From Acidobacteriota bacterium (GTDB taxonomy: Bacteria > Acidobacteriota > Blastocatellia > UBA7656): a stretch of 64,000 nt of DNA. Positions 49,092-58,950 of this stretch are shown in pieces (the stretch's first letter is position 1; each line of letters opens with the position of its first letter). The DNA lies in contig JBFMDH010000001.1 in NCBI GenBank assembly GCA_040754075.1, positions 166,262-230,261 on the forward strand, written 5' to 3'. The translations under genes and the position numbers were made by a program. The notes under the pieces are model-generated. The model was not told the DNA's origin. It did no database searches and saw nothing but the letters and a program-made list of their open reading frames with translations.

Positions 49092-52000
49092 ATGCCGGAA
49101 TATTCCTTTCGTCTGACAATTATTTTTCAGACTTTTGAAAATGACACTGAGCTTGCCGAAGCTCTTTTTTTTCCCGAAATCTCCCGATTTGGCGATAAAG
49201 CGAAAAAATTAGAGAACGCGGTTAAGGAAAATGTCGTGCGCCTTGTCGAAGAAGACGATGCGCTCGCGCTCTATCGTCGTCACTTTACGAGCGAGCCTGA
49301 ACTTGGTGAAGCGCGCGTCACCGTCAATCCGCCACCGAAATCCATCGCCTGGCAAAAGCCGATTGATCTTACTTTTCAAATCCTGCTCTTTACGCATGGC
49401 GAAGACCTGTACATCGCTCACCTTCCACAACTTGGTATCGAAATCATTGGCAGAAACCGGGAAGAACTTGAAGAGAAAATTCCCGCAGAAATTCACGCGC
49501 ATCTCTTACGCATCAAAAAAAATCGCTCACTTGGCGAATTGTTCTGGTTGCAACGCGCCAAAGCGATTCGCCTGGCGCGAACCACTTTTGACGCGACCAT
49601 TCGCACGCCGAAACAGATAGCCAAAAGTCAGTATGCCGCTGACGAAGAGAAAAAATCCGAGCTTGAAAAAGTGGCGACCGATTTAGTCAAAGAGCATTTA
49701 CCGGAGGCTTTTGAGATAGACGAAACCGTCACCCGCATTGCAGACGCGCTTGGCGGTCGCCATCCGCGCAGTGTTTTACTGGTCGGCAAATCGGGCGTCG
49801 GCAAAACCGCTGCGGTGTATGAACTGGTGCGCCGTCGCGCGGCGTTTCGTCTGAGTCGCACACCGTTTTACGCAACCAGCGGCTCGCGACTGGTTGCCGG
49901 CATGTCAGGTTTTGGCATGTGGCAGGAACGTTGCGGCAAAGTCTGGCGCGAGGCTGCAAAACAAAAAGCGATTCTGCATTTCGGCAATCTGCTCGAACTG
50001 ATGGAAGTTGGCAAAAGCACGGCGAACAATCAGGGTATCGCGTCATTCTTTCGCCCCTACATCAGTCGTGGCGATTTGCTCTGCATTGCCGAATGCGCGC
50101 CTGAACAATTGCCCATCATTGAACGCGAAGCGCCAAATCTGCTTGACGCTTTTTTGCAAATTAAAGTTGATGAACCGACAGTTGAACGCGGTTCGGCAAT
50201 TCTGCTGCATTATGCGATTGCGCAAAGCGGGCGCGAGTCGCCGGTTGACCTCGAAGCGATTGAAACGATTGATCGGTTGCATCGCCGCTATGCGACTTAT
50301 TCAGCCTATCCCGGTCGCCCTTTGCGGTTTTTGAAAAATTTATTGCAGGATCGCAAAGGCGGTTCCATCAATGCCGCGATGGTCACTGCGCGTTTTTCCG
50401 AAGAGACCGGTTTGCCGCTATTTTTACTGAACGATGACCTGCCGCTCGATTTAGCGGCGACGCAGAAATTTTTCAGTGAACGGGTCATCGGACAAGCGAG
50501 CGCCGTTGAGTTGGTGGTTAATTTACTGGCGACCGTCAAAGCGCGGCTCACGCGAGCCGGAAAACCGATTGCGTCGTTGATGTTCATCGGGCCCACCGGC
50601 GTTGGCAAAACCGAAATGGCAAAGGCGCTTGCCGAATTCTTATTTCAAAATCGCAATCGCCTGATTCGTTTCGATATGAGCGAATATGCCGATGTGAATT
50701 CCATCGGGCGACTGATTGGCGGCGCGTGGGGAAAAGAAGGCTTGCTTACCGCGAAGGTGCGCGAACAACCGTTTGCGGTGATTCTGCTTGATGAATTTGA
50801 GAAAGCCCATCCGTCATTTTTCGATTTGTTGTTGCAGGTTCTGGGCGAAGGTCGTTTGACCGATGCGATGGGGCGGGTTGCCGATTTTACCAACGCGGTG
50901 GTGATTATGACTTCCAATCTCGGCGCGGAAACTTATAAACGCAATGCGCTGGGGTTTCGTGACGCGACGGATGCCACTGCGCAGGCTCGCGAACATTTTA
51001 TGAAAGCGGTGCAGGCATTTGTGCGTCCCGAATTTTTCAACCGCATCGACCGTATCGTGCCGTTTACACCGCTTGATGAAGCGACCGTATTGAAAATTGC
51101 CCATCGTGAACTGCAACAGATTACGCGACGCGATGGCATTTTCTATCGCGGGGTTGAATTAAATATTACCGAGCAGGTGGCTGAGCGATTGGCGCGAATC
51201 GGCTACGATGCGCGGTATGGGGCGCGACCTCTGAAACGCGCCATCGAACGAGAATTGCTGGTGCCGATTTCCGAAGCGTTGAATTTGCAAACCCTCGATG
51301 TCGGTTTACAGGCGGAGGTGACTGTCGAAGGCGATGAATTGAGTGTAGCGGTGCGCCTTAAAACCGATGAAGCCGGGCGCGTGATTTCCAAATCGTCGAA
51401 GAGCGCGCCGTTTGCCGAACTGGTAAAACAGGCGGCGAAACTCCGCCGCGATGCGCAGAACCTGCGTGGCAGTATCTTTGTTCAGGAGATTCAAAACGAA
51501 ATATTCAACCTTGAACGACTGGCGATGCGGCTTGCGAAAAATAAAACAAAAAATAAATGGCAAGACCCGGCGCAAGCTACAAGCCTTGCGCGGTTGCCCG
51601 ATTTGAAAAATAAATTACAGGCGCTTGAGGTATTCGTCACCCAAACGGCGCAATTTGAAGACGCCGTGTTGTTCTGTTTTTACGGCAAGGAGACCGGCGA
51701 TAAAAACGGTTTGCAGGCGCAACTTGCCGGGATGCAAAAACAGTGGACGGCGCGGTTGTTGGAAATTTACGGATTGCAATTTAAAAAGCCGGATGCGGTG
51801 ACGGTGGCGCTCTATTCGGAAAATGCCAACTGGTTATTTGAACTGGCGCGTGCCTATTTTGAAATCGCGAAACAAATCATGGCGAACGTCGAGGTTGTGG
51901 AATTTGCGGTGCCGTCGCATCAGGAAAGCGAAGCGATAAAGCTTCGCGTCAAAGCCGGTGAAAAAGTTGAGGTTTTTAATTTGCTGGGGCGCGTGACCAT

Positions 52001-52394
52001 TAAACGCCAGGTGAAAAAGCCGGAGGAATTTTTATCCGCGCCGAACGCGCAAACCGTTGGTATCGTGTTGGGCATAGCGGGTGAAATGGTGTTTCCGAGA
52101 TTTGAACCCGAACATGATTTGCACGCCATGACGGTTGCCAAACAAACCCATAACTGTTTGGTACATACCAGTGAAGCGCGCCTCGAAGATTACCTGCCGG
52201 TGAAAGAATTGGATAAACGCGGCAGCATCAAGCATCAGGACGCGCGACGCCTTTATAACCGCGACGACAGCTCGGTTGAAGATTTGTCGCTTGAAGAGAA
52301 ATTTTACTTAGACCGTGATAATTTAGTTGCGGTTGTGCATCAGGCGATTGAACGCCGCTTGCTCAAAAGCGCGCAAGGATTGCTGGATGAATGA
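49092..52394 (+). CDS. atypical ClpA/ClpC-like double-AAA+ ATPase with novel N-domain and C-terminal release-factor-like module (paralogue 1)
   Basis: 1100 aa.
- NBD1: Walker A GKSGVGKT; Walker B position reads AILHFGNLLEL (no acidic pair).
- NBD2: GPTGVGKT, ILLDEFEKAH, TSNLG, GARPLKRAIEREL.
- LGF at aa 620-622, at the ClpA IGL-loop position.
- C-terminal aa ~775-1100 aligns with RF1/RF2 motifs (see findings). Confidence 0.85.
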   Translation: MPEYSFRLTIIFQTFENDTELAEALFFPEISRFGDKAKKLENAVKENVVRLVEEDDALALYRRHFTSEPELGEARVTVNPPPKSIAWQKPIDLTFQILLFTHGEDLYIAHLPQLGIEIIGRNREELEEKIPAEIHAHLLRIKKNRSLGELFWLQRAKAIRLARTTFDATIRTPKQIAKSQYAADEEKKSELEKVATDLVKEHLPEAFEIDETVTRIADALGGRHPRSVLLVGKSGVGKTAAVYELVRRRAAFRLSRTPFYATSGSRLVAGMSGFGMWQERCGKVWREAAKQKAILHFGNLLELMEVGKSTANNQGIASFFRPYISRGDLLCIAECAPEQLPIIEREAPNLLDAFLQIKVDEPTVERGSAILLHYAIAQSGRESPVDLEAIETIDRLHRRYATYSAYPGRPLRFLKNLLQDRKGGSINAAMVTARFSEETGLPLFLLNDDLPLDLAATQKFFSERVIGQASAVELVVNLLATVKARLTRAGKPIASLMFIGPTGVGKTEMAKALAEFLFQNRNRLIRFDMSEYADVNSIGRLIGGAWGKEGLLTAKVREQPFAVILLDEFEKAHPSFFDLLLQVLGEGRLTDAMGRVADFTNAVVIMTSNLGAETYKRNALGFRDATDATAQAREHFMKAVQAFVRPEFFNRIDRIVPFTPLDEATVLKIAHRELQQITRRDGIFYRGVELNITEQVAERLARIGYDARYGARPLKRAIERELLVPISEALNLQTLDVGLQAEVTVEGDELSVAVRLKTDEAGRVISKSSKSAPFAELVKQAAKLRRDAQNLRGSIFVQEIQNEIFNLERLAMRLAKNKTKNKWQDPAQATSLARLPDLKNKLQALEVFVTQTAQFEDAVLFCFYGKETGDKNGLQAQLAGMQKQWTARLLEIYGLQFKKPDAVTVALYSENANWLFELARAYFEIAKQIMANVEVVEFAVPSHQESEAIKLRVKAGEKVEVFNLLGRVTIKRQVKKPEEFLSAPNAQTVGIVLGIAGEMVFPRFEPEHDLHAMTVAKQTHNCLVHTSEARLEDYLPVKELDKRGSIKHQDARRLYNRDDSSVEDLSLEEKFYLDRDNLVAVVHQAIERRLLKSAQGLLDE

Positions 52395-52550: not shown

Positions 52551-55500
52551 GTGAACATAACGCTTCCGATTTACATTCAAAAACCTGCGCCGCAAGACAC
52601 CTTGCCGCCGACGCATATTCTGCGCCCGCTGTTTTTCCCCTATATCGAAGTGCAGGGCGAAGACCTCAATCGCGCCGTCACCAAGCTGGCGCAAAAGATT
52701 CGCCACGAGTGTGACCGACTCGGTAAGGCGATGCGTCACGACCAACTTTCAAAATTTGGTTTCGCGCCTGACCTCGAAGACCGCTTTTTGAAACTCACGC
52801 TCGACCTCGGCAGTCGAAAAGCCGAGTGCAATTTTCTATTTGTCGTCATGCAAACGGTGGGGCGCAAAATTGCTTTTACTCCGGCGCTTGCCGATTTATG
52901 GTTTGAGATTCATCGCGGCGAAACCTTAGTCAACCGCGCCACCGAAGTTCTGTCGCATTACTTTCGCCAGAAACAGAAACGCGAAGGCAACGATGCCCTG
53001 AGACCCGAAGCCTTTTCGGTCAGCGGTAAAGCCTGGGTAACGACGCTCGACATCAGCATCAATCCACCGGCGCGCGCGCCCAAGCTTGTGCAAAATCTCT
53101 TTGCCCTGCTTGGCGAAGCGCCGCAGATGGATGGCGCGGAAGAACTCAATCGCGTCGGGCGATGCCTCGATTATCTTTACCCGGACGATTTGCAGCGGGT
53201 GATTTTTCGGGAGACGGAAACTGAAGCCTTGACCGCGATTTTGAAATCGCAGGACAAACGCCCGGTGCTGTTAATCGGCGAACGCCTGGTCGGAAAGACG
53301 GCGATCATTCACGAATATGTGCATCGCGCTGTGAGCCAACGTCACTCGAAATTCGACGCGAAAAATCAAGTGTGGTTGATTGCGCCGCAACGGTTGATTT
53401 CGGGAATGTCTTACGTCGGGCAGTGGGAAAACCGTCTGCTGGCGATTTTGAAAGTTGCGAAAAAAAAGCAACACATTCTCTACTTCGATGATTTGCTCGG
53501 ACTCTATCAAGCCGGGCAGAGCGCCAGTTCTTCTCTAAGCGTTGCCGATGTTTTAAAACCTTATGTAGAAAAACGCGAAGTGCGCATCCTTGGCGAAATC
53601 ACTCCCGAAGCCTTTCGGGTATTTCAGGAACGCGACCGCGGCTTTGCCGATTCCTTTCATCTGTTGCCGGTCAAAGAACCCGATGAAGATAAAACCTTTC
53701 GCATTCTTCTGCATTTGATGCGCGAGCTTGAGCGCAAACATCGCGCCACTTTTTCTACGGATGTTTTTCCGACAGTGATGGATGTGCAGCGACGCTACAC
53801 ACGCGATGCGGTGTTCCCCGGCAAGGCGGCGATTTTCCTGCAACAACTCGCCGTCAAATATCGCCACGAGCGCGTCACCCGCGATGAAGTATTACAGGAG
53901 TTTCACGCGAAAAGCGGTTTCAGCTTGAATTTTTTGAATGATGAAAACAAACTCACACGGCAAGAGGTAATCGAAGCGGTCGGCAATACGGTCATCGGGC
54001 AGGAGGCGGCGCTTGCTGCCTGTGCGGATGTGGTGTCGATGGCAAAGGCGCGGCTCAATGACCCAGACCGCCCGCTCGCGTCGTTTCTGTTTTTAGGACC
54101 CACAGGGGTTGGCAAAACCCAATGCGCGAAATCGCTTGCGGCATATCTGTACGGCGATGGCGATAAACTTATTCGTTTCGATATGAATGAATATTCGTCG
54201 CCCTATGCGGTGGCAAGACTGGTCGGCACATTCCATCAACCCGAAGGATTGCTCACCAGCGCCGCGCGGCGGCAACCGTTTTCGGTAGTGTTGTTTGATG
54301 AAATCGAAAAGGCGCACCCGGATGTTTTCAATCTTTTATTGCAGGTAATGGGTGACGGGCGGCTTACGGATGCGCTCGGACGAACGGTCGATTTTACCAA
54401 CGCGATGGTCATTTTAACCTCGAACCTCGGCGTCAAAGAGGCTGCGAAAAATCTGGGCTTTCATCGTGACAGAGAACGCGATGGGCAGGTTTATACGCAA
54501 GCCGCCGAGAAATTTTTCAAGCCGGAATTTTTCAATCGCCTCGACCGCATCGTGCCGTTTGCAAGGCTCGGACGCGAAGAGGTGATGCAGATTGCCGAAG
54601 GGTTGATTCAACAGGTTTTTGCGCGTGAAGGATTGGTGCGCCGCAAATGTATTTTACAGGTGGATGAACGGGCAATGGCGCGCATTGTTGAGGAAGGTTA
54701 TCACCCACAACTCGGAGCGCGCGCCCTGAAACGCCTGCTTGAACGCGAGTTGACCCAACCGGTGGCAAGACAACTTGCGACTCTTAAACCCGATGCGCCC
54801 ACGCTCATTAAAGTTTATCCGGCGGCAAGTGAGCTAAAAGTTACGGTCGATTCATTGAAAGGCGCAACGTTGAATGATGAGAGCGCAAGGTTGATTGAAG
54901 GGGTTGCGCCAAAACAGATTGTTGAGCTTGCGGAAGCCGCAGTTGACCGCATTGAATCGCAGGCGGCAAAGATGAGTCCGCAAGGGCTGATCAATCCCGA
55001 TGCCGTGGATGCTACACAACTCGCCTATTTTCAAATTCGCGAACAGGCGCGCCGGGCGCGTGAACTTTGTGAAAAGGTCGCGGCAAAAATCAAACCAACC
55101 GGAAAGCCACTGGTGTCGCGTTCACGCGGTCGCAGCATTGCGGCTTCGCAATTCACTTTGCGTCAGGTAAGCGTCGGAGATTTATGGCAACGATTGATTG
55201 AAGCGGGTGATGTGCGTCAGTTGATGCGCGAACTGCTAACCACTGCCCAACCCTATGGTGAACGCCTCGAAGATTACCTTTCAGAGTTAACGCGCGAGAC
55301 CGCCTTGCTTGAGGTGATTGCGCAAAGCAACGATGAGGTTTCAACCCATCAGGCATTGATGTTGATTCAATCGCTGGACGAAGCCTTTAAAGTCGAGCGT
55401 GAACGGCTGGCAAAAATTTATCACGAACTCTTTACCTATAAACTGGGAAGCCGCGCAGAGTTATTGACCGGCAATCAGGAGGCGGCGGCTTTGCACAGCG

Positions 55501-55877
55501 ATGCCGTGTTGATTCAAGGCGTAAATGTGTTGGCGCTGGCTAAACCCGAAACCGGCGCTCACCTGTTTTACACGGCTAAAGAACAACTCGTGCCGTTGCA
55601 AATTCACGTCTTGCCGGTAATTGACCATTCCGCAGCCGCGACGATTCGCCGGTTTGCTGAAAGTCAGAAGAGGCGATTAAGCGAGCCGGTCGATACCAAC
55701 GAAACCGATTTAAACGAGGCATCGGTTATTCGGGTTTATGAAGAGAACGGCGCGACGCTTGATTTACGCTCAGGACTGATGACGCTCAAGATGCCGACGA
55801 CGAAAGAACTGCGCGCCTTGTTACTTGCGGCTTTGCCATTGCCAATGGAGATGCAATCGGTAGTCGGTAGCCGGTAG
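52551..55877 (+). CDS. atypical ClpA/ClpC-like double-AAA+ ATPase with novel N-domain and C-terminal release-factor-like module (paralogue 2)
   Basis: 1108 aa, GTG start.
- NBD1: GERLVGKT; Walker B ILYFDDLL.
- NBD2: GPTGVGKT, VLFDEIEKAH, TSNLG, GARALKRLLEREL.
- LGF at aa 635-637.
- C-terminal aa ~785-1108 is RF-like (ETGAHLF, IRVYEENGATLDLRSG). Confidence 0.85.
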   Translation: MNITLPIYIQKPAPQDTLPPTHILRPLFFPYIEVQGEDLNRAVTKLAQKIRHECDRLGKAMRHDQLSKFGFAPDLEDRFLKLTLDLGSRKAECNFLFVVMQTVGRKIAFTPALADLWFEIHRGETLVNRATEVLSHYFRQKQKREGNDALRPEAFSVSGKAWVTTLDISINPPARAPKLVQNLFALLGEAPQMDGAEELNRVGRCLDYLYPDDLQRVIFRETETEALTAILKSQDKRPVLLIGERLVGKTAIIHEYVHRAVSQRHSKFDAKNQVWLIAPQRLISGMSYVGQWENRLLAILKVAKKKQHILYFDDLLGLYQAGQSASSSLSVADVLKPYVEKREVRILGEITPEAFRVFQERDRGFADSFHLLPVKEPDEDKTFRILLHLMRELERKHRATFSTDVFPTVMDVQRRYTRDAVFPGKAAIFLQQLAVKYRHERVTRDEVLQEFHAKSGFSLNFLNDENKLTRQEVIEAVGNTVIGQEAALAACADVVSMAKARLNDPDRPLASFLFLGPTGVGKTQCAKSLAAYLYGDGDKLIRFDMNEYSSPYAVARLVGTFHQPEGLLTSAARRQPFSVVLFDEIEKAHPDVFNLLLQVMGDGRLTDALGRTVDFTNAMVILTSNLGVKEAAKNLGFHRDRERDGQVYTQAAEKFFKPEFFNRLDRIVPFARLGREEVMQIAEGLIQQVFAREGLVRRKCILQVDERAMARIVEEGYHPQLGARALKRLLERELTQPVARQLATLKPDAPTLIKVYPAASELKVTVDSLKGATLNDESARLIEGVAPKQIVELAEAAVDRIESQAAKMSPQGLINPDAVDATQLAYFQIREQARRARELCEKVAAKIKPTGKPLVSRSRGRSIAASQFTLRQVSVGDLWQRLIEAGDVRQLMRELLTTAQPYGERLEDYLSELTRETALLEVIAQSNDEVSTHQALMLIQSLDEAFKVERERLAKIYHELFTYKLGSRAELLTGNQEAAALHSDAVLIQGVNVLALAKPETGAHLFYTAKEQLVPLQIHVLPVIDHSAAATIRRFAESQKRRLSEPVDTNETDLNEASVIRVYEENGATLDLRSGLMTLKMPTTKELRALLLAALPLPMEMQSVVGSR

Positions 55878-55885: not shown

Positions 55886-55941
55886 GTGTTTAGTGGTTGA
55901 ATAGAGCGAGGAAGGCTTATGATAAAAAACCGGAGGTAATT

Positions 55942-56553
55942 ATGAGGAACTTCATGTACTGCTTTTTATTTTTATCAAGCCTTTTGACCTTATTGTTGAT
56001 GGTCACGCCGACCGCGAAAGCCTGTACACGCGCCGGCCCGTTTACGTTTAATGAGTTATTCGATAATGCAGAGGTGATTGTGCGGGCTACCGCCGTTAAG
56101 TATGCAAAGGTTCCTGATAATCCGAATATGCGGACAACGGGAGAGCCGGATTCAATTATTCAATTCAAGGTTGAAGAAATACTGAGAGGCAAAAACCTCG
56201 CGAGTACCATCCTGCTCAATGGTTATTTGAGTGATAGTGATGATTACAACGAACAGCCTGTACCTTATACCTTCGTCCGTCCGAATGGTCGCGATGGAAG
56301 TTGCTTTGCGAATACCTATAAACAAGGCGGGCAATTTCTCTTGTTTTTAAAAAAAGTCGACAGTGAATATACGCCCAATATCAGCGCACTTGGCCCAACC
56401 AATGAACAATTGCGAGATGAAAACGACCCCTGGTTGAAATGGGTTAAAGAGCATTTGAAAACCGAAACGAAGCGCAAGCCGCGACTTGCGCTGAACTGGA
56501 AATCACAATTCATAATCGAACACCTCTTCGATAGGGATTGGATATTGGTTTAG
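55942..56553 (+). CDS. hypothetical secreted protein embedded in the AAA+ cluster
   Basis: ATG at 55942 preceded by ggagg. MRNFMYCFLFLSSLLTLLLMVTPTAKAC signal peptide. No recognised domain. Visibly AT-richer than the flanking AAA+ genes (by eye). Confidence 0.55.
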   Translation: MRNFMYCFLFLSSLLTLLLMVTPTAKACTRAGPFTFNELFDNAEVIVRATAVKYAKVPDNPNMRTTGEPDSIIQFKVEEILRGKNLASTILLNGYLSDSDDYNEQPVPYTFVRPNGRDGSCFANTYKQGGQFLLFLKKVDSEYTPNISALGPTNEQLRDENDPWLKWVKEHLKTETKRKPRLALNWKSQFIIEHLFDRDWILV

Positions 56554-56643: not shown

Positions 56644-58950
56644 ATGCCGAGTTTTCGTTTTCCAATTTTAATCTGGGAAGACCACGAAGGATATTTTACC
56701 GCGTGTCCGGTCGAGGGTTTTTATAACACTTTTGCGGGAATAGGTCGCAGTGCCAGTGAAGCGGTTTTTCAATTGAAAGAATTTCTCGCTTATCACTACG
56801 AGAAAAACCCCTGGGCAGCGCCGCCCGATTTTCACGACGCCAAACTCATCGAATTTCGCGCTGATGTGCGCCCGGAATATCGCATTGAAGAAATTGTCGG
56901 CGACCGCAAACAAAAAAATATTTACCCGACCGAAGAAACCCTCGCCTTGCGTTTTGCCTGTGTACACGGCAAACAGCAAGCCGGATTGCTCATCTGTGTG
57001 CTGCCGCTTTTCGGCATACAATTTTATTACTACGATGAAAAGAAACTGAAAGAACTGGCGGTCACCTATGTGCAGGAGAGTTTCAAAGGTCTTGCCCCAC
57101 AACAACTCACAAGATTCTTACCGCCTAAAAATTATCGACTTGATGAAATCGTCATCAATGTTTCACGCAAAGAAACCAGATACGAATACCAACCCTCGCT
57201 TGACACCTTGAACGAAATTGCCGAACCCCTCGGCGACAAACGATTGCGCAGACAATTTTCCGCCGCCTGGGAGCGTGACACGGAAGTTAGAGACCTCGCC
57301 CAGCGCATCGGCAAAGAGAAAGCCAACGTCATCATCGTCGGCGACAGCGGCATCGGTAAAACCACTTTGCTGGTGAACGCGGTGCGTGAAGTTGAACAGC
57401 ATATGATTGCGGGCGATGACGAAGAAAACGCCGGGCGCAAAGCCAGACACCGATTTTATTTGACCAGCGGCGCGCGCATCATCGCAGGGATGCGCTATCT
57501 CGGTCAGTGGGAAGAGCGGGTTGAATCGCTCATTGATGAGCTTGCGGAAATCAATGGCGTGTTATGCGTCGGCAGCATTTTGGACTTAATCCTTGCAGGC
57601 GGTGAAGTGAGCGCCAGCATCGCGGCATTTTTACAGCCCTTTCTGCAACGCGGCGAATTGCAACTCGTAGGCGAAGCGACGCCCACCGAACTCGATGCCT
57701 GCCGAAGATTATTGCCGGGATTTGCCAGCCTGTTTCAAATTCTCAATCTGCAACCGTTCAATCGCGCCCAGGCGATTGCGATTTTGCAACGCGCTTCGGA
57801 AACTTATCAGCGCAATTATCGCATTGAGGCGGCAAGCATCCTGCCGGAACTCGTCTATCGTTTGTTCAATCGCTTCTCGCCTTATCAGGCATTCCCCGGA
57901 AAAGCCATTGCCTTTCTGCATTCGGCATTTGAACGCGCCGAACTTGAACATAAAACGGCAATCACCGGCGAAGACCTGATTCAAAAGTTTGTGCGGCAGA
58001 CCGGACTCCCCGAACTTTTTTTACGCGATGAATTGCCGCTCAACCAGTATGACATCGTTGAATTTTTTGAACAGCAGGTCATCGGGCAACGCGCCGCCTG
58101 TGAAGTTGCGGCAAATCTGGTGACTACATTCAAAGCCGGGTTGAACGACCCGCAACGCCCGATTGGGGTGTTGCTGTTTTGCGGGCCGACCGGGGTTGGC
58201 AAAACCCAACTCGCAAAAGCGATTTCGGAATACCTGTTCGGACAAGGCGAAGAACGCAACCGCTTAATCCGGCTCGATATGAGCGAATATGGCGATTTCG
58301 GCGCGGCAGAACGTTTGATTACCAAGCCCAATGGCGAGCCGAGCGATTTGATTCAGCGGGTACGCCAGCAACCATTCGTTGTGGTGTTGTTCGATGAAAT
58401 CGAAAAAGCCGACGTAGCGGTTTTCGATGCGTTGCTCAGTGTTTTCGATGAAGGGCGCATCACCGACCGTTACGGGCGAACCACTTCATTTCGCAGCGCC
58501 ATCATTATCGCGACGTCGAACATCGGCGCAGATAAAACCGCGAGCATCGGATTCGATGGTCACAATGTGCGCGGTTTTGCCGCGGAGGTGATGACTTTCT
58601 TTCGCCCGGAATTTTTTAATCGCCTGGATGCGGTTGTCGGTTTTCGCGCGCTCGACGAAGAAGCGATTCTCAACGTAACGCGCAAAGAATTAGCTGAGAT
58701 TGCCAAACGCGAAGGGATAAACGCCTCGAATACCAGATTAATTTGGACAGAACGATTAATTGAATATATGGCGAAAGCCGGTTATGACGCGCGATATGGC
58801 GCGCGCCCTTTGCAACGCACCATTGAACAGATGATCGTTGCGCCGCTTTCGCGATTCCTGCTTGAACACCTGATGAGCAAAGGCAAAACCATTCAAGCCG
58901 ATTTCCTCAATGGCGAAATCCGTTTTTCAACTACGGAACATACGGAATAG
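56644..58950 (+). CDS. atypical ClpA/ClpC-like double-AAA+ ATPase with novel N-domain, no C-terminal extension (paralogue 3)
   Basis: 768 aa.
- NBD1: GDSGIGKT; Walker B position reads GVLCVGSILDL.
- NBD2: GPTGVGKT, VLFDEIEKAD, TSNIG, GARPLQRTIEQ.
- IGF at aa 635-637. Confidence 0.85.
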   Translation: MPSFRFPILIWEDHEGYFTACPVEGFYNTFAGIGRSASEAVFQLKEFLAYHYEKNPWAAPPDFHDAKLIEFRADVRPEYRIEEIVGDRKQKNIYPTEETLALRFACVHGKQQAGLLICVLPLFGIQFYYYDEKKLKELAVTYVQESFKGLAPQQLTRFLPPKNYRLDEIVINVSRKETRYEYQPSLDTLNEIAEPLGDKRLRRQFSAAWERDTEVRDLAQRIGKEKANVIIVGDSGIGKTTLLVNAVREVEQHMIAGDDEENAGRKARHRFYLTSGARIIAGMRYLGQWEERVESLIDELAEINGVLCVGSILDLILAGGEVSASIAAFLQPFLQRGELQLVGEATPTELDACRRLLPGFASLFQILNLQPFNRAQAIAILQRASETYQRNYRIEAASILPELVYRLFNRFSPYQAFPGKAIAFLHSAFERAELEHKTAITGEDLIQKFVRQTGLPELFLRDELPLNQYDIVEFFEQQVIGQRAACEVAANLVTTFKAGLNDPQRPIGVLLFCGPTGVGKTQLAKAISEYLFGQGEERNRLIRLDMSEYGDFGAAERLITKPNGEPSDLIQRVRQQPFVVVLFDEIEKADVAVFDALLSVFDEGRITDRYGRTTSFRSAIIIATSNIGADKTASIGFDGHNVRGFAAEVMTFFRPEFFNRLDAVVGFRALDEEAILNVTRKELAEIAKREGINASNTRLIWTERLIEYMAKAGYDARYGARPLQRTIEQMIVAPLSRFLLEHLMSKGKTIQADFLNGEIRFSTTEHTE

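Follow-up and report, generated by a model that had tools for sequence, protein, structure and literature searches.

In bacterial class-I release factors (RFs), domain 1 is helical and interacts with the L11 stalk/RF3, domain 3 is the GGQ peptidyl-hydrolase domain of about 100 residues, and the GSGGTE segment of RF2 reads U1 of the stop codon. On the ribosome, RF2 contacts the L11 stalk through domain 1 and the 30S A site through domain 2; together with ArfA, the SPF motif is not used (PMC5378476). A survey of RF architectures that covers RF1/RF2, PrfH, ArfB/ICT1/C12orf65, and MRPS35 contains no version without the hydrolase domain (PMC6514570); it is kept in the active variants RF1, RF2, PrfH, and ArfB/ICT1 as well as in the inactive MRPS35 (PMC6514570). 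Members of the RF superfamily that occupy the A site and are catalytically dead include Dom34 and Balon (PMC6514570, PMC10901736), and Vms1 couples an RF-like protein to the AAA+ protein Cdc48 (PMC6514570). The stretch of DNA analyzed here, called the window, comprises 64,000 nt of contig JBFMDH010000001.1 from an Acidobacteriota metagenome-assembled genome (MAG). It contains three same-strand genes for paralogous double-AAA+ proteins, designated P1, P2, and P3. The second gene, P2 (52551..55877, + strand), was taken from its open reading frame and translation; it encodes 1108 residues, and the sequence is identical to NCBI MEW6125590.1. The last ~240 residues of P2 (residues ~873–1108) are genuinely, though very distantly, homologous to bacterial class-I RFs, and we regard it as almost certain that they form an RF-derived module without GGQ.

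In one single sequence, the resemblance to RFs is not above chance by itself. Neither the P2 tail nor the P1 tail alone had a Pfam match, including PCRF (PF03462) and RF-1 (PF00472), even at E <= 10. An NCBIfam scan of the P1 and P2 tails found nothing, and when the P2 tail was compared with E. coli RF2 by BLASTP, the alignment was non-significant (E = 0.094) and in a different register. When Pfam was applied to 38 family members, PCRF was matched by one of them (E = 0.0094) and RF-1 by none. A word-indexed homologue search recovered only three relatives of the P2 tail and one of the P1 tail, for P1 also with a profile as the query, and a profile of 4 tail sequences matched nothing among the PDB sequences, so that a deeper profile was needed. 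An exhaustive HMMER search of 1.84 billion representative sequences with a small P2-tail profile (E <= 1e-3) retrieved 383 clusters. With a 38-sequence tail profile (A2) compared with 177,635 PDB sequences, RF2 was matched at E = 6.5e-9 and RF1 at E = 7.9e-6, and RF1/RF2 made up 26 of the 28 matches listed. The main aligned stretch covered residues 22–187 of Thermus thermophilus RF2, which comprise domain 1 and the part of domain 2 that ends with EAGVHRLV, and a second, collinear stretch paired VvRiYd..DLRsG of the family with IRSYV..DHRTG of RF2. The hhalign comparison of A2 with E. coli RF2 alone yielded E = 7.3e-5 over domain 2.

AlphaFold2 produced a confident model from A2, with a predicted local distance difference test (pLDDT) value of 89.3 and a predicted template modeling score (pTM) of 0.88. 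A Foldseek search of the full PDB with this model resulted in 46 matches at E <= 1e-3, all of which were class-I RFs (best E = 1.5e-8). The global TM-scores of the model against RFs were low (0.3–0.4), which is expected because the query is multidomain, lacks one RF domain, and has extra helices. An RF-like domain order had been proposed in an earlier note on this DNA; a collinear order, with probably part of domain 1, then domain 2, and then domain 4, was supported by the sequence profiles and by the predicted structure. The P2 tail has the beta-superdomain of domains 2 and 4 with the collinear motifs ExGxH(R), RxY, and DxR. In the domain 1 region, the hidden Markov model alignment spans RF2 residues 22–105 and the structural model has three helices; this stretch is partly a disordered basic linker and its extent is approximate. 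The segments of P2 that had been cited in the earlier note could all be located (HQALMLIQSLDEAF at residues 933–946, ETGAH at 1000–1004, PLQIHVLPV at 1015–1023, and IRVYEENGATLDLRSG at 1060–1075), and the RF2 strings placed beside them are the true E. coli RF2 sequence. The register that had been given for domains 2 and 4 was reproduced by the profile alignments, exactly so with a local profile of 95 sequences.

From the N- to the C-terminus, P2 is composed of a HicB-like N-domain, the ClpA-like AAA+ modules D1 and D2, a coiled coil, a basic linker, and the GGQ-less RF-like module. Residues 751–847 (54801..55091, + strand) are predicted to form a beta-hairpin and an antiparallel pair of long, coiled-coil-like helices (E2-7, E12-17, H37-58, and H71-97 of the AlphaFold2 model, in tail numbering); this part is family-specific and lies outside the significant RF alignment. 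It is followed by a disordered, strongly basic linker of 25 residues (KPTGKPLVSRSRGRSIAASQFTLRQ, residues 848–872, 55092..55166, + strand, pLDDT 58–62). The linker is basic in 98% of 95 orthologues, with a median net charge of +6 and a median isoelectric point (pI) of 11.8, and its sequence is not conserved. The tail apart from the linker is acidic (median pI 5.3 for domains 2–4). The RF-like module proper starts with helices that the profile alignment places against the C-terminal part of RF domain 1 (residues 873–930, 55167..55340, + strand; H128-134, H138-148, and H156-174 of the model). Domain 2 consists of a beta-sheet and a helix (residues 931–1023, 55341..55619, + strand) and contains the nearly invariant motif E1000-x-G1002-x-H1004-L at 55548–55562. 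One helix (H278-294) and a low-confidence loop (pLDDT 67–72) stand in place of domain 3 (residues 1024–1058, 55620..55724, + strand). Domain 4 (residues 1059–1108, 55725..55874, + strand) comprises VIRVYEENGATLDLRSGLMT and a subsequent helix, aligns with RF2 in the profile comparison, and is followed by a family-specific LPLPxE motif. This motif (55833–55850) is located at the end of P2-type tails, where L1095, P1096, P1098, and E1100 are conserved in 76–94%. Neither RFs nor P1-type tails have an equivalent of it, and it may be a docking peptide.

The loss of domain 3 is accounted for by the spacing of the conserved motifs. Between the His of ExGxH and the Arg of RxY, the distance is 57 residues in P2 and 61 residues in the family (median), compared with 125–126 residues in E. 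coli RF2/RF1. The earlier estimate that about 36 residues replace the GGQ domain was close to the 35 residues found (1024–1058), and the absence of a GGQ tripeptide held for P1, P2, and P3. GGQ did occur in 6 of 95 orthologous tails, at scattered and non-homologous positions. The helix retained in residues 1024–1058 showed a weak alignment with the switch loop and with RF helix alpha-7 at its C-terminal end, which favors a secondary deletion of the hydrolase domain over a primordial state into which it had not been inserted. A less likely variant is that the module represents the codon-recognition domain in its state prior to the insertion of the peptidyl-hydrolase domain.

Several elements used by RFs for decoding were also lost or variable. 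The columns aligned to GSGGTE of RF2 vary among orthologues, and the loop after ExGxH, which bears SPF in RF2, is variable and about 4 residues shorter, as counted on the sequences. In the switch loop, the residue aligned to W319 of RF2 is Leu in the consensus of the family and Glu in P2 of the window; in termination complexes, Trp319 stacks on A1492 (PMC5378476). A check of the decoding-loop positions among orthologues, which the earlier note had suggested, turned out negative in that the positions that read stop codons are not conserved, whereas the motifs of the fold core are. Selection acts on the fold core and not on decoding. Having neither GGQ nor a conserved SPF/PxT loop, a conserved GGxE tip of helix alpha-5, or the switch-loop Trp, the P2 module is unable to hydrolyze peptidyl-tRNA or to read stop codons in the manner of RF1/RF2.

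The tail family was found in Acidobacteriota, Planctomycetota, and metagenomes, and its 383 clusters are defined at 50% identity. The 150 matches listed of these 383 include 40 full-length proteins of ~1100 residues, in which the tail starts near residue 750. E1000, G1002, and H1004 are conserved in 94–100% of the orthologues, and R1061, Y1063, D1071, R1073, and G1075 in 83–99% (94–100% for R1061 and D1071). Across phyla, domain 4 is the best-conserved part of the tail (41–47% identity) and the replacement of domain 3 the least conserved segment (6–20%, with values of up to 26% in the set of comparisons as a whole). Domain 2 is 23–27% identical, versus 64–68% for AAA+ D2, and the tail evolves faster than the AAA+ core. 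It had been argued previously that the RF-like module is under selection; its retention in the 383 clusters and the near invariance of ExGxH, RxY, and DLRxG agree with this view and support purifying selection on the module in a large family. Short family matches that begin with Met were considered as stand-alone tails and rejected, since they start at varied internal positions of the AAA+ part or the tail and are fragments from short contigs. A tblastn search of plasmid and phage collections revealed no copy of the family, and in the PADLOC defense library only generic AAA-domain matches, to DolB and PDC-M37B, were obtained.

A second, more diverged GGQ-less RF-like module is located at the end of P1 (51327–52391, + strand), with PEHDLH at 52107–52124 and RRLYNRDDSSVED at 52245–52283. 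For its analysis, P1-type tails were recovered from genes adjoining P2 orthologues in eight loci and combined into a 9-sequence profile. In the alignment of the P1-type tails, E..H, RxY, and D are invariant. P1 of the window has Asp for the conserved Gly of ExGxH (PEHDLH), and Gly is present in all eight other P1-type tails examined. The two tails of the window did not match each other by BLASTP or with a shallow profile. When the P1-tail and P2-tail profiles were compared with hhalign, a probability of 89.7% and E = 1.8e-6 were obtained, in register on ExGxH. The P1-tail profile also matched RF2 among the PDB sequences (E = 3.6e-4) and, more weakly and over domain 4, RF1. The spacing of ExGxH and RxY is ~42–46 residues in P1-type tails, which have an insertion in domain 2. 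Taken together, these comparisons indicate that P1 carries a homologous, likewise GGQ-less module.

The third paralogue, P3, terminates directly after D2-small and has no RF-like tail. The distribution originally proposed, with the module in P1 and P2 and not in P3, was borne out by the profiles and by five of the five loci that contain P3; the P3 orthologues in loci L002, L006, L007, and L008 have 757–784 residues and no tail. A neighbor-joining tree, a simple method, was calculated over 726 columns of the core, and E. coli ClpA and ClpB served as the only two outgroup sequences for rooting. Each paralogue group was monophyletic in 200 of 200 bootstraps, P1 and P3 were sisters in 195 of 200, and the cores of P1, P2, and P3 formed one clade relative to E. 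coli ClpA and ClpB. Because the P1 and P2 tails are homologous while the P1 and P3 cores are sisters, the simplest history, which we propose with moderate confidence, would be a single ancestral fusion in which domain 3 was already missing, followed by two duplications and the loss of the tail in P3. The earlier note had described an independent, divergent copy of the module. A divergent second copy was indeed found, but the tails are homologous to each other and have the same domain 3 deletion, which does not fit an independent acquisition.

The motor part of P2 is ClpA-like and has several unusual features. The ClpA-like double AAA+ core and the subsequent D2-small extend over 53277..54800 (+ strand); Pfam matched AAA_2 at residues 507–666 (E = 6e-47) and ClpB_D2-small at residues 673–743 (E = 5e-13), and TIGR02639 (ClpA) was aligned across residues 199–741. 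None of the NCBIfam equivalog cut-offs was reached (378 versus 1232 bits for ClpB, 373 versus 993 for ClpA, and 276 versus 885 for ClpV). The spacing of the two Walker A motifs is ClpA-like and leaves no room for an M-domain. The features of D1 and of the D2 pore loop were compared in 21 sequences from 8 loci that represent all three paralogue families. The Walker A motif of D1 is intact (GERLVGKT, 53277–53300, + strand, in P2). The catalytic Glu of the D1 Walker B motif is missing in all three families; the respective sites of the window are YFDD in P2 (53475–53498), HxGN in P1 (49971–49994), and CxxS in P3 (57559–57582). D1 thus probably binds nucleotide without hydrolyzing it. In D2, the Walker A motif (54096–54119, + strand, in P2), the Walker B motif with its DE (54288–54317, + strand), the Arg finger, and sensor 2 are intact. 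The D2 pore loop (P2 54225–54248, GTFHQPEG; P1 50718–50741; P3 58321–58344) has a conserved deletion of 8 residues, which removes the GYVG tyrosine of ClpA/ClpB and is unusual for a threading Hsp100. An aromatic residue is present in the D2 pore loop only in P2 (GTF), and the D1 pore loop keeps Tyr or Phe.

All three paralogues contain an [LIV]-G-F tripeptide at the position of IGL of ClpA (NLGFH, 54450–54464, in P2; ALGFR, 50946–50960, in P1; SIGFD, 58543–58557, in P3). It aligns with KSIGLI of ClpA, which lies in the last AAA+ module within the loop that connects sensor 1 to the Arg finger. The tripeptides that dock ClpP are IGL in ClpA and LGF in ClpC1 and ClpX (PMC4416901). Within the family, the Gly is invariant, and it precedes Phe in 20 of the 21 locus sequences and Tyr in the remaining one; in the Planctomycetota locus L007, the tripeptide begins with Ala or Pro. 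A regular expression found the tripeptide in 30 of 39 full-length P2-type proteins. As the motif occupies the docking-loop position in all three paralogues, the ring may dock on ClpP. The N-terminal domain (residues 1–215 of P2, 52551..53195, + strand) is common to P1, P2, and P3 and has a tandem HicB-antitoxin-like fold; its model matches the HicB N-terminal fold, and Pfam gave no match to Clp_N.

In the window, P1 (49092..52394, + strand, 1100 residues, MEW6125589) and P3 (56644..58950, + strand, 768 residues, MEW6125592) flank P2, and P3 consists of the same N-domain and AAA+ core as the other two. The three proteins are 29–35% identical in pairwise comparisons, and NCBI annotates each of them only as 'AAA family ATPase'. 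AAA_2 and ClpB_D2-small were detected in all three, and the part covered by Pfam ends at residues ~735–751; P1 and P2 extend ~355 residues beyond it. The ClpA and ClpB models of NCBIfam could likewise be aligned to all three, with scores far below the equivalog cut-offs. The order P1-P2-P3, often with overlapping stop and start codons, was seen at five distant loci; besides the window, these are L002 (Blastocatellia MAG), L006 (TARA ocean scaffold), L007 (Planctomycetota MAG), and L008 (groundwater contig), and P1-P2 pairs were present in L005 and L009. A variant arrangement was seen in L003 (10001–22414) and L004 (ENA ERZ27296148/ERZ27296167), where a P2-type and a P1-type gene are split by two unannotated genes (178 and 533 residues); it continues into a TerD/vWA-TerF-like gene, and the 23-kb locus shows no P3. 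A fourth gene conserved at the loci was not found, and small open reading frames next to the operon are unrelated between them. The three-gene ATPase operon is apparently undescribed, and it is likely that P1, P2, and P3 work as one heteromeric machine.

The genes that flank the trio in the window are housekeeping genes (purL-like, aldo/keto reductase, aroA, and HinT-like). The aldo/keto reductase gene upstream of P1 (47616–48728) is syntenic and 82% identical in the Blastocatellia MAG (L002, 2965–4077), so that the window genome probably comes from a related member of the Blastocatellia. Apart from this gene, no neighbors are in common with the more distant loci. An open reading frame of 218 residues (55897–56553, + strand) with a signal-peptide-like start (MRNFMYCFLFLSSLLTLLLMVTPTAKAC) lies between P2 and P3. 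It had no match in Pfam, NCBIfam, or PADLOC and is missing from the close relative L002, where the gap between P2 and P3 is 140 bp, and from all other loci examined; it looks like a lineage-specific insertion into the operon. Promoter and terminator scans remained at chance level, and Rfam gave no matches.

As the overall best explanation, to which we assign a probability of roughly 0.5, we propose that the tails are dead RF mimics that tether a heteromeric ClpA-like motor to ribosomes. P1, P2, and P3 would form one heteromeric ring, in which D1 binds ATP without hydrolysis and D2 is the motor. The catalytically dead tails of P1 and P2 would dock at the sites of RF domain 1 and domains 2/4, i.e., the L11 stalk and the 30S A site, possibly with the help of the basic linker. 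Docking would thereby bring the ATPase to ribosomes whose A site is empty, i.e., stalled, hibernating, or damaged ones, and hold it there; the motor could then remodel them or pull out a bound protein or the nascent chain. The extracted product might be passed to ClpP, because all three subunits keep [LIV]-G-F at the docking-loop position. For ribosome docking as the function of the tails, taken separately, we see a chance just short of even. A more specific proposal, that P1-P2-P3 is a self-contained bacterial machine for ribosome quality control or remodeling and a counterpart of Vms1-Cdc48 or Pelota-ABCE1, is doubtful; such a machine would recognize A sites that are empty or aberrant and, driven by ATP hydrolysis in D2, extract nascent chains or bound factors, possibly into ClpP, or dismantle stalled or hibernating ribosomes.

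Several observations weigh against tethering to ribosomes. The known contacts to the codon and the decoding center, i.e., the SPF loop, the GGxE tip, and Trp319, are all lost or variable, and the conserved ExGxH, RxY, and DxR motifs may merely be the fold core of domains 2 and 4. The neighboring genes differ at every locus, and none of them is ribosome-related. The tail emerges from the D2 face of the ring, the expected docking side of ClpP, which raises a question of geometry for a combination of tethering with delivery to ClpP. A D2 module without the GYVG pore-loop tyrosine questions classical threading. The acidic character of the module without its linker (median pI 5.3) is a further point, though not a decisive one, as E. 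coli RF1 and RF2 are equally acidic.

The alternatives differ in what they make of the tails. If the resemblance to RFs were spurious, a helical or low-complexity likeness or a fold imposed by AlphaFold, the BLASTP alignment in the wrong register (E = 0.094), the failure of PCRF and RF-1 to match the single sequence at E <= 10, and the global TM-scores of 0.3–0.4 could be understood. The earlier note had itself named a likeness of this kind, without a consistent domain order, as the outcome that would speak against it; the profiles and the model showed a consistent order, and a spurious resemblance can be regarded as effectively refuted. The faster evolution of the tail (23–27% identity for domain 2 versus 64–68% for D2 across phyla) and the missing catalytic domain might suggest that the tail is a decaying remnant without present function. 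We consider this very improbable, since the full-length tail is kept in 40 of 40 full-length proteins (>= 1000 residues) among the matches listed, it has persisted with near-invariant motifs in two paralogue lineages across phyla, its predicted fold is confident, and P3, which does not need a tail, exemplifies a clean removal. Two separate fusion events for P1 and P2 could explain why the tails do not match each other by BLASTP or a shallow profile and why their inserts differ, with a domain 2 insertion being present in P1-type tails. Such a double origin is improbable as well: the deeper profiles revealed the homology of the tails, both are attached at the same junction after D2-small, both have the domain 3 deletion (spacings of ~42–61 versus 125 residues in RFs), and the three cores form one clade relative to E. 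coli ClpA/ClpB.

A more serious competitor is a non-ribosomal exaptation, in which the RF fold was kept as a scaffold, either as a receptor for substrates or adaptors or as a module for autoregulation or oligomerization, and the clients are non-ribosomal. The loss or variability of all codon and decoding-center contacts, the limitation of conservation to fold-core motifs, and the lack of a translation-related gene neighborhood are in agreement with it. In addition, the LPLPxE motif that was added to P2-type tails is conserved, foreign to RFs, and looks like a docking peptide. Peptide binding by beta-strand addition to the domain 2 sheet is also conceivable, as with ArfA, which extends the domain 2 sheet of RF2 by binding residues 213–217 (PMC5378476). 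On the other side, domain-1-like helices and domains 2/4 have been kept in RF order throughout a large and old family, for which a retained ribosome geometry is the simplest cause, and the basic, flexible linker beside the module fits a contact with nucleic acid. It also weighs against exaptation that RF domains 1 and 2/4 are not known to have partners beyond the ribosome, RF3, ArfA/BrfA, and PrmC. We hold exaptation to be a tentative possibility with considerable merit, and the tethering of a heteromeric motor to ribosomes by dead RF mimics is retained as the preferred explanation.

The family reverses the usual pattern of RF evolution in that the hydrolase domain was discarded and the parts that dock on the ribosome were kept and joined to a Clp-type motor in three co-inherited paralogues. 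Ribosome-directed AAA+ couplings have so far been mainly eukaryotic, with Vms1-Cdc48, Drg1, and Rea1 as examples. If the tails bind ribosomes, P1-P2-P3 would represent a new kind of ribosome-directed AAA+ machine in bacteria. Even without ribosome binding, the large family and the oddities of its motor, i.e., the dead D1, the D2 pore loop without tyrosine, and the HicB-like N-domains, bear on how Hsp100 rings function. The hypothesis of ribosome binding can be tested directly, as three genes and purified ribosomes are sufficient. In a literature search of limited coverage, no Clp/AAA+ protein with a fused RF-like domain was found to be described, and the public records examined give the family only the generic names 'AAA family ATPase' or 'Clp protease ATP-binding subunit'. 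The architecture is new and combines domains of known families.

Compared with known systems, the tails are closest to RF1 and RF2, which were the best matches in sequence and structure and share homologous domains 2/4 and, probably, part of domain 1 in the same order as well as ExGxH, RxY, and DxR; RF2 scored slightly above RF1 for both tail types. In contrast to RF1/RF2, the P2 tail lacks domain 3, GGQ, the SPF/PxT loop, the GGxE tip, and the switch-loop Trp. Furthermore, RF1 and RF2 are free proteins, whereas the P2 module is the C-terminal appendage of an AAA+ ATPase of ~750 residues and has an additional coiled coil, a basic linker, and an LPLPxE end. PrfH (RF-H) and ArfB/ICT1 are similar insofar as RF domains were kept or dropped in a modular manner, and PrfH retains domains 2/4. 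However, PrfH combines domains 2/4 with an active GGQ domain, has no domain 1, and has rtcB as a neighbor, a combination not seen with the P2 tail.

The motor resembles ClpA/ClpC in its two AAA+ modules with ClpA-like spacing, the lack of an M-domain, the combination of AAA_2 and ClpB_D2-small, and [LIV]GF at the docking position (PMC4416901). It differs from ClpA/ClpB/ClpC by its HicB-like N-domain instead of Clp_N, the dead D1 Walker B motif, and the deleted GYVG loop of D2. In addition, ClpA-type proteins are encoded by a single gene, in contrast to the three obligatorily linked paralogues of this family. Pex1/Pex6-type hetero-hexamers with an inactive D1 follow a logic similar to that of the P1/P2/P3 family. 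Compared with the HicB antitoxin, the C-terminal DNA-binding domain is missing and the N-domain is fused to an AAA+ ring; no hicA was noticed among the called neighboring genes, in which no search aimed at hicA was made.

Functional parallels are found among other RF-like proteins. Dom34/Pelota (with ABCE1 or Hbs1) and the bacterial hibernation factor Balon follow the same logic as proposed here, an RF-shaped occupant of the A site of stalled or non-translating ribosomes without the catalytic Gln that is combined with a nucleoside triphosphatase (PMC6514570, PMC10901736). They differ in that they have the unrelated, archaeo-eukaryotic aeRF1 fold, whereas the tails described here have the bacterial RF fold, lack the whole catalytic domain, and are part of the same chain as the nucleoside triphosphatase. 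Vms1/ANKZF1-Cdc48 of eukaryotic ribosome quality control is similar in its physical link between an RF-like module and an AAA+ unfoldase with two rings (PMC6514570). Vms1, however, is a separate and active aeRF1-type protein that is recruited via a VIM motif, whereas P2 is a covalent fusion with the bacterial RF fold and an inactive module.

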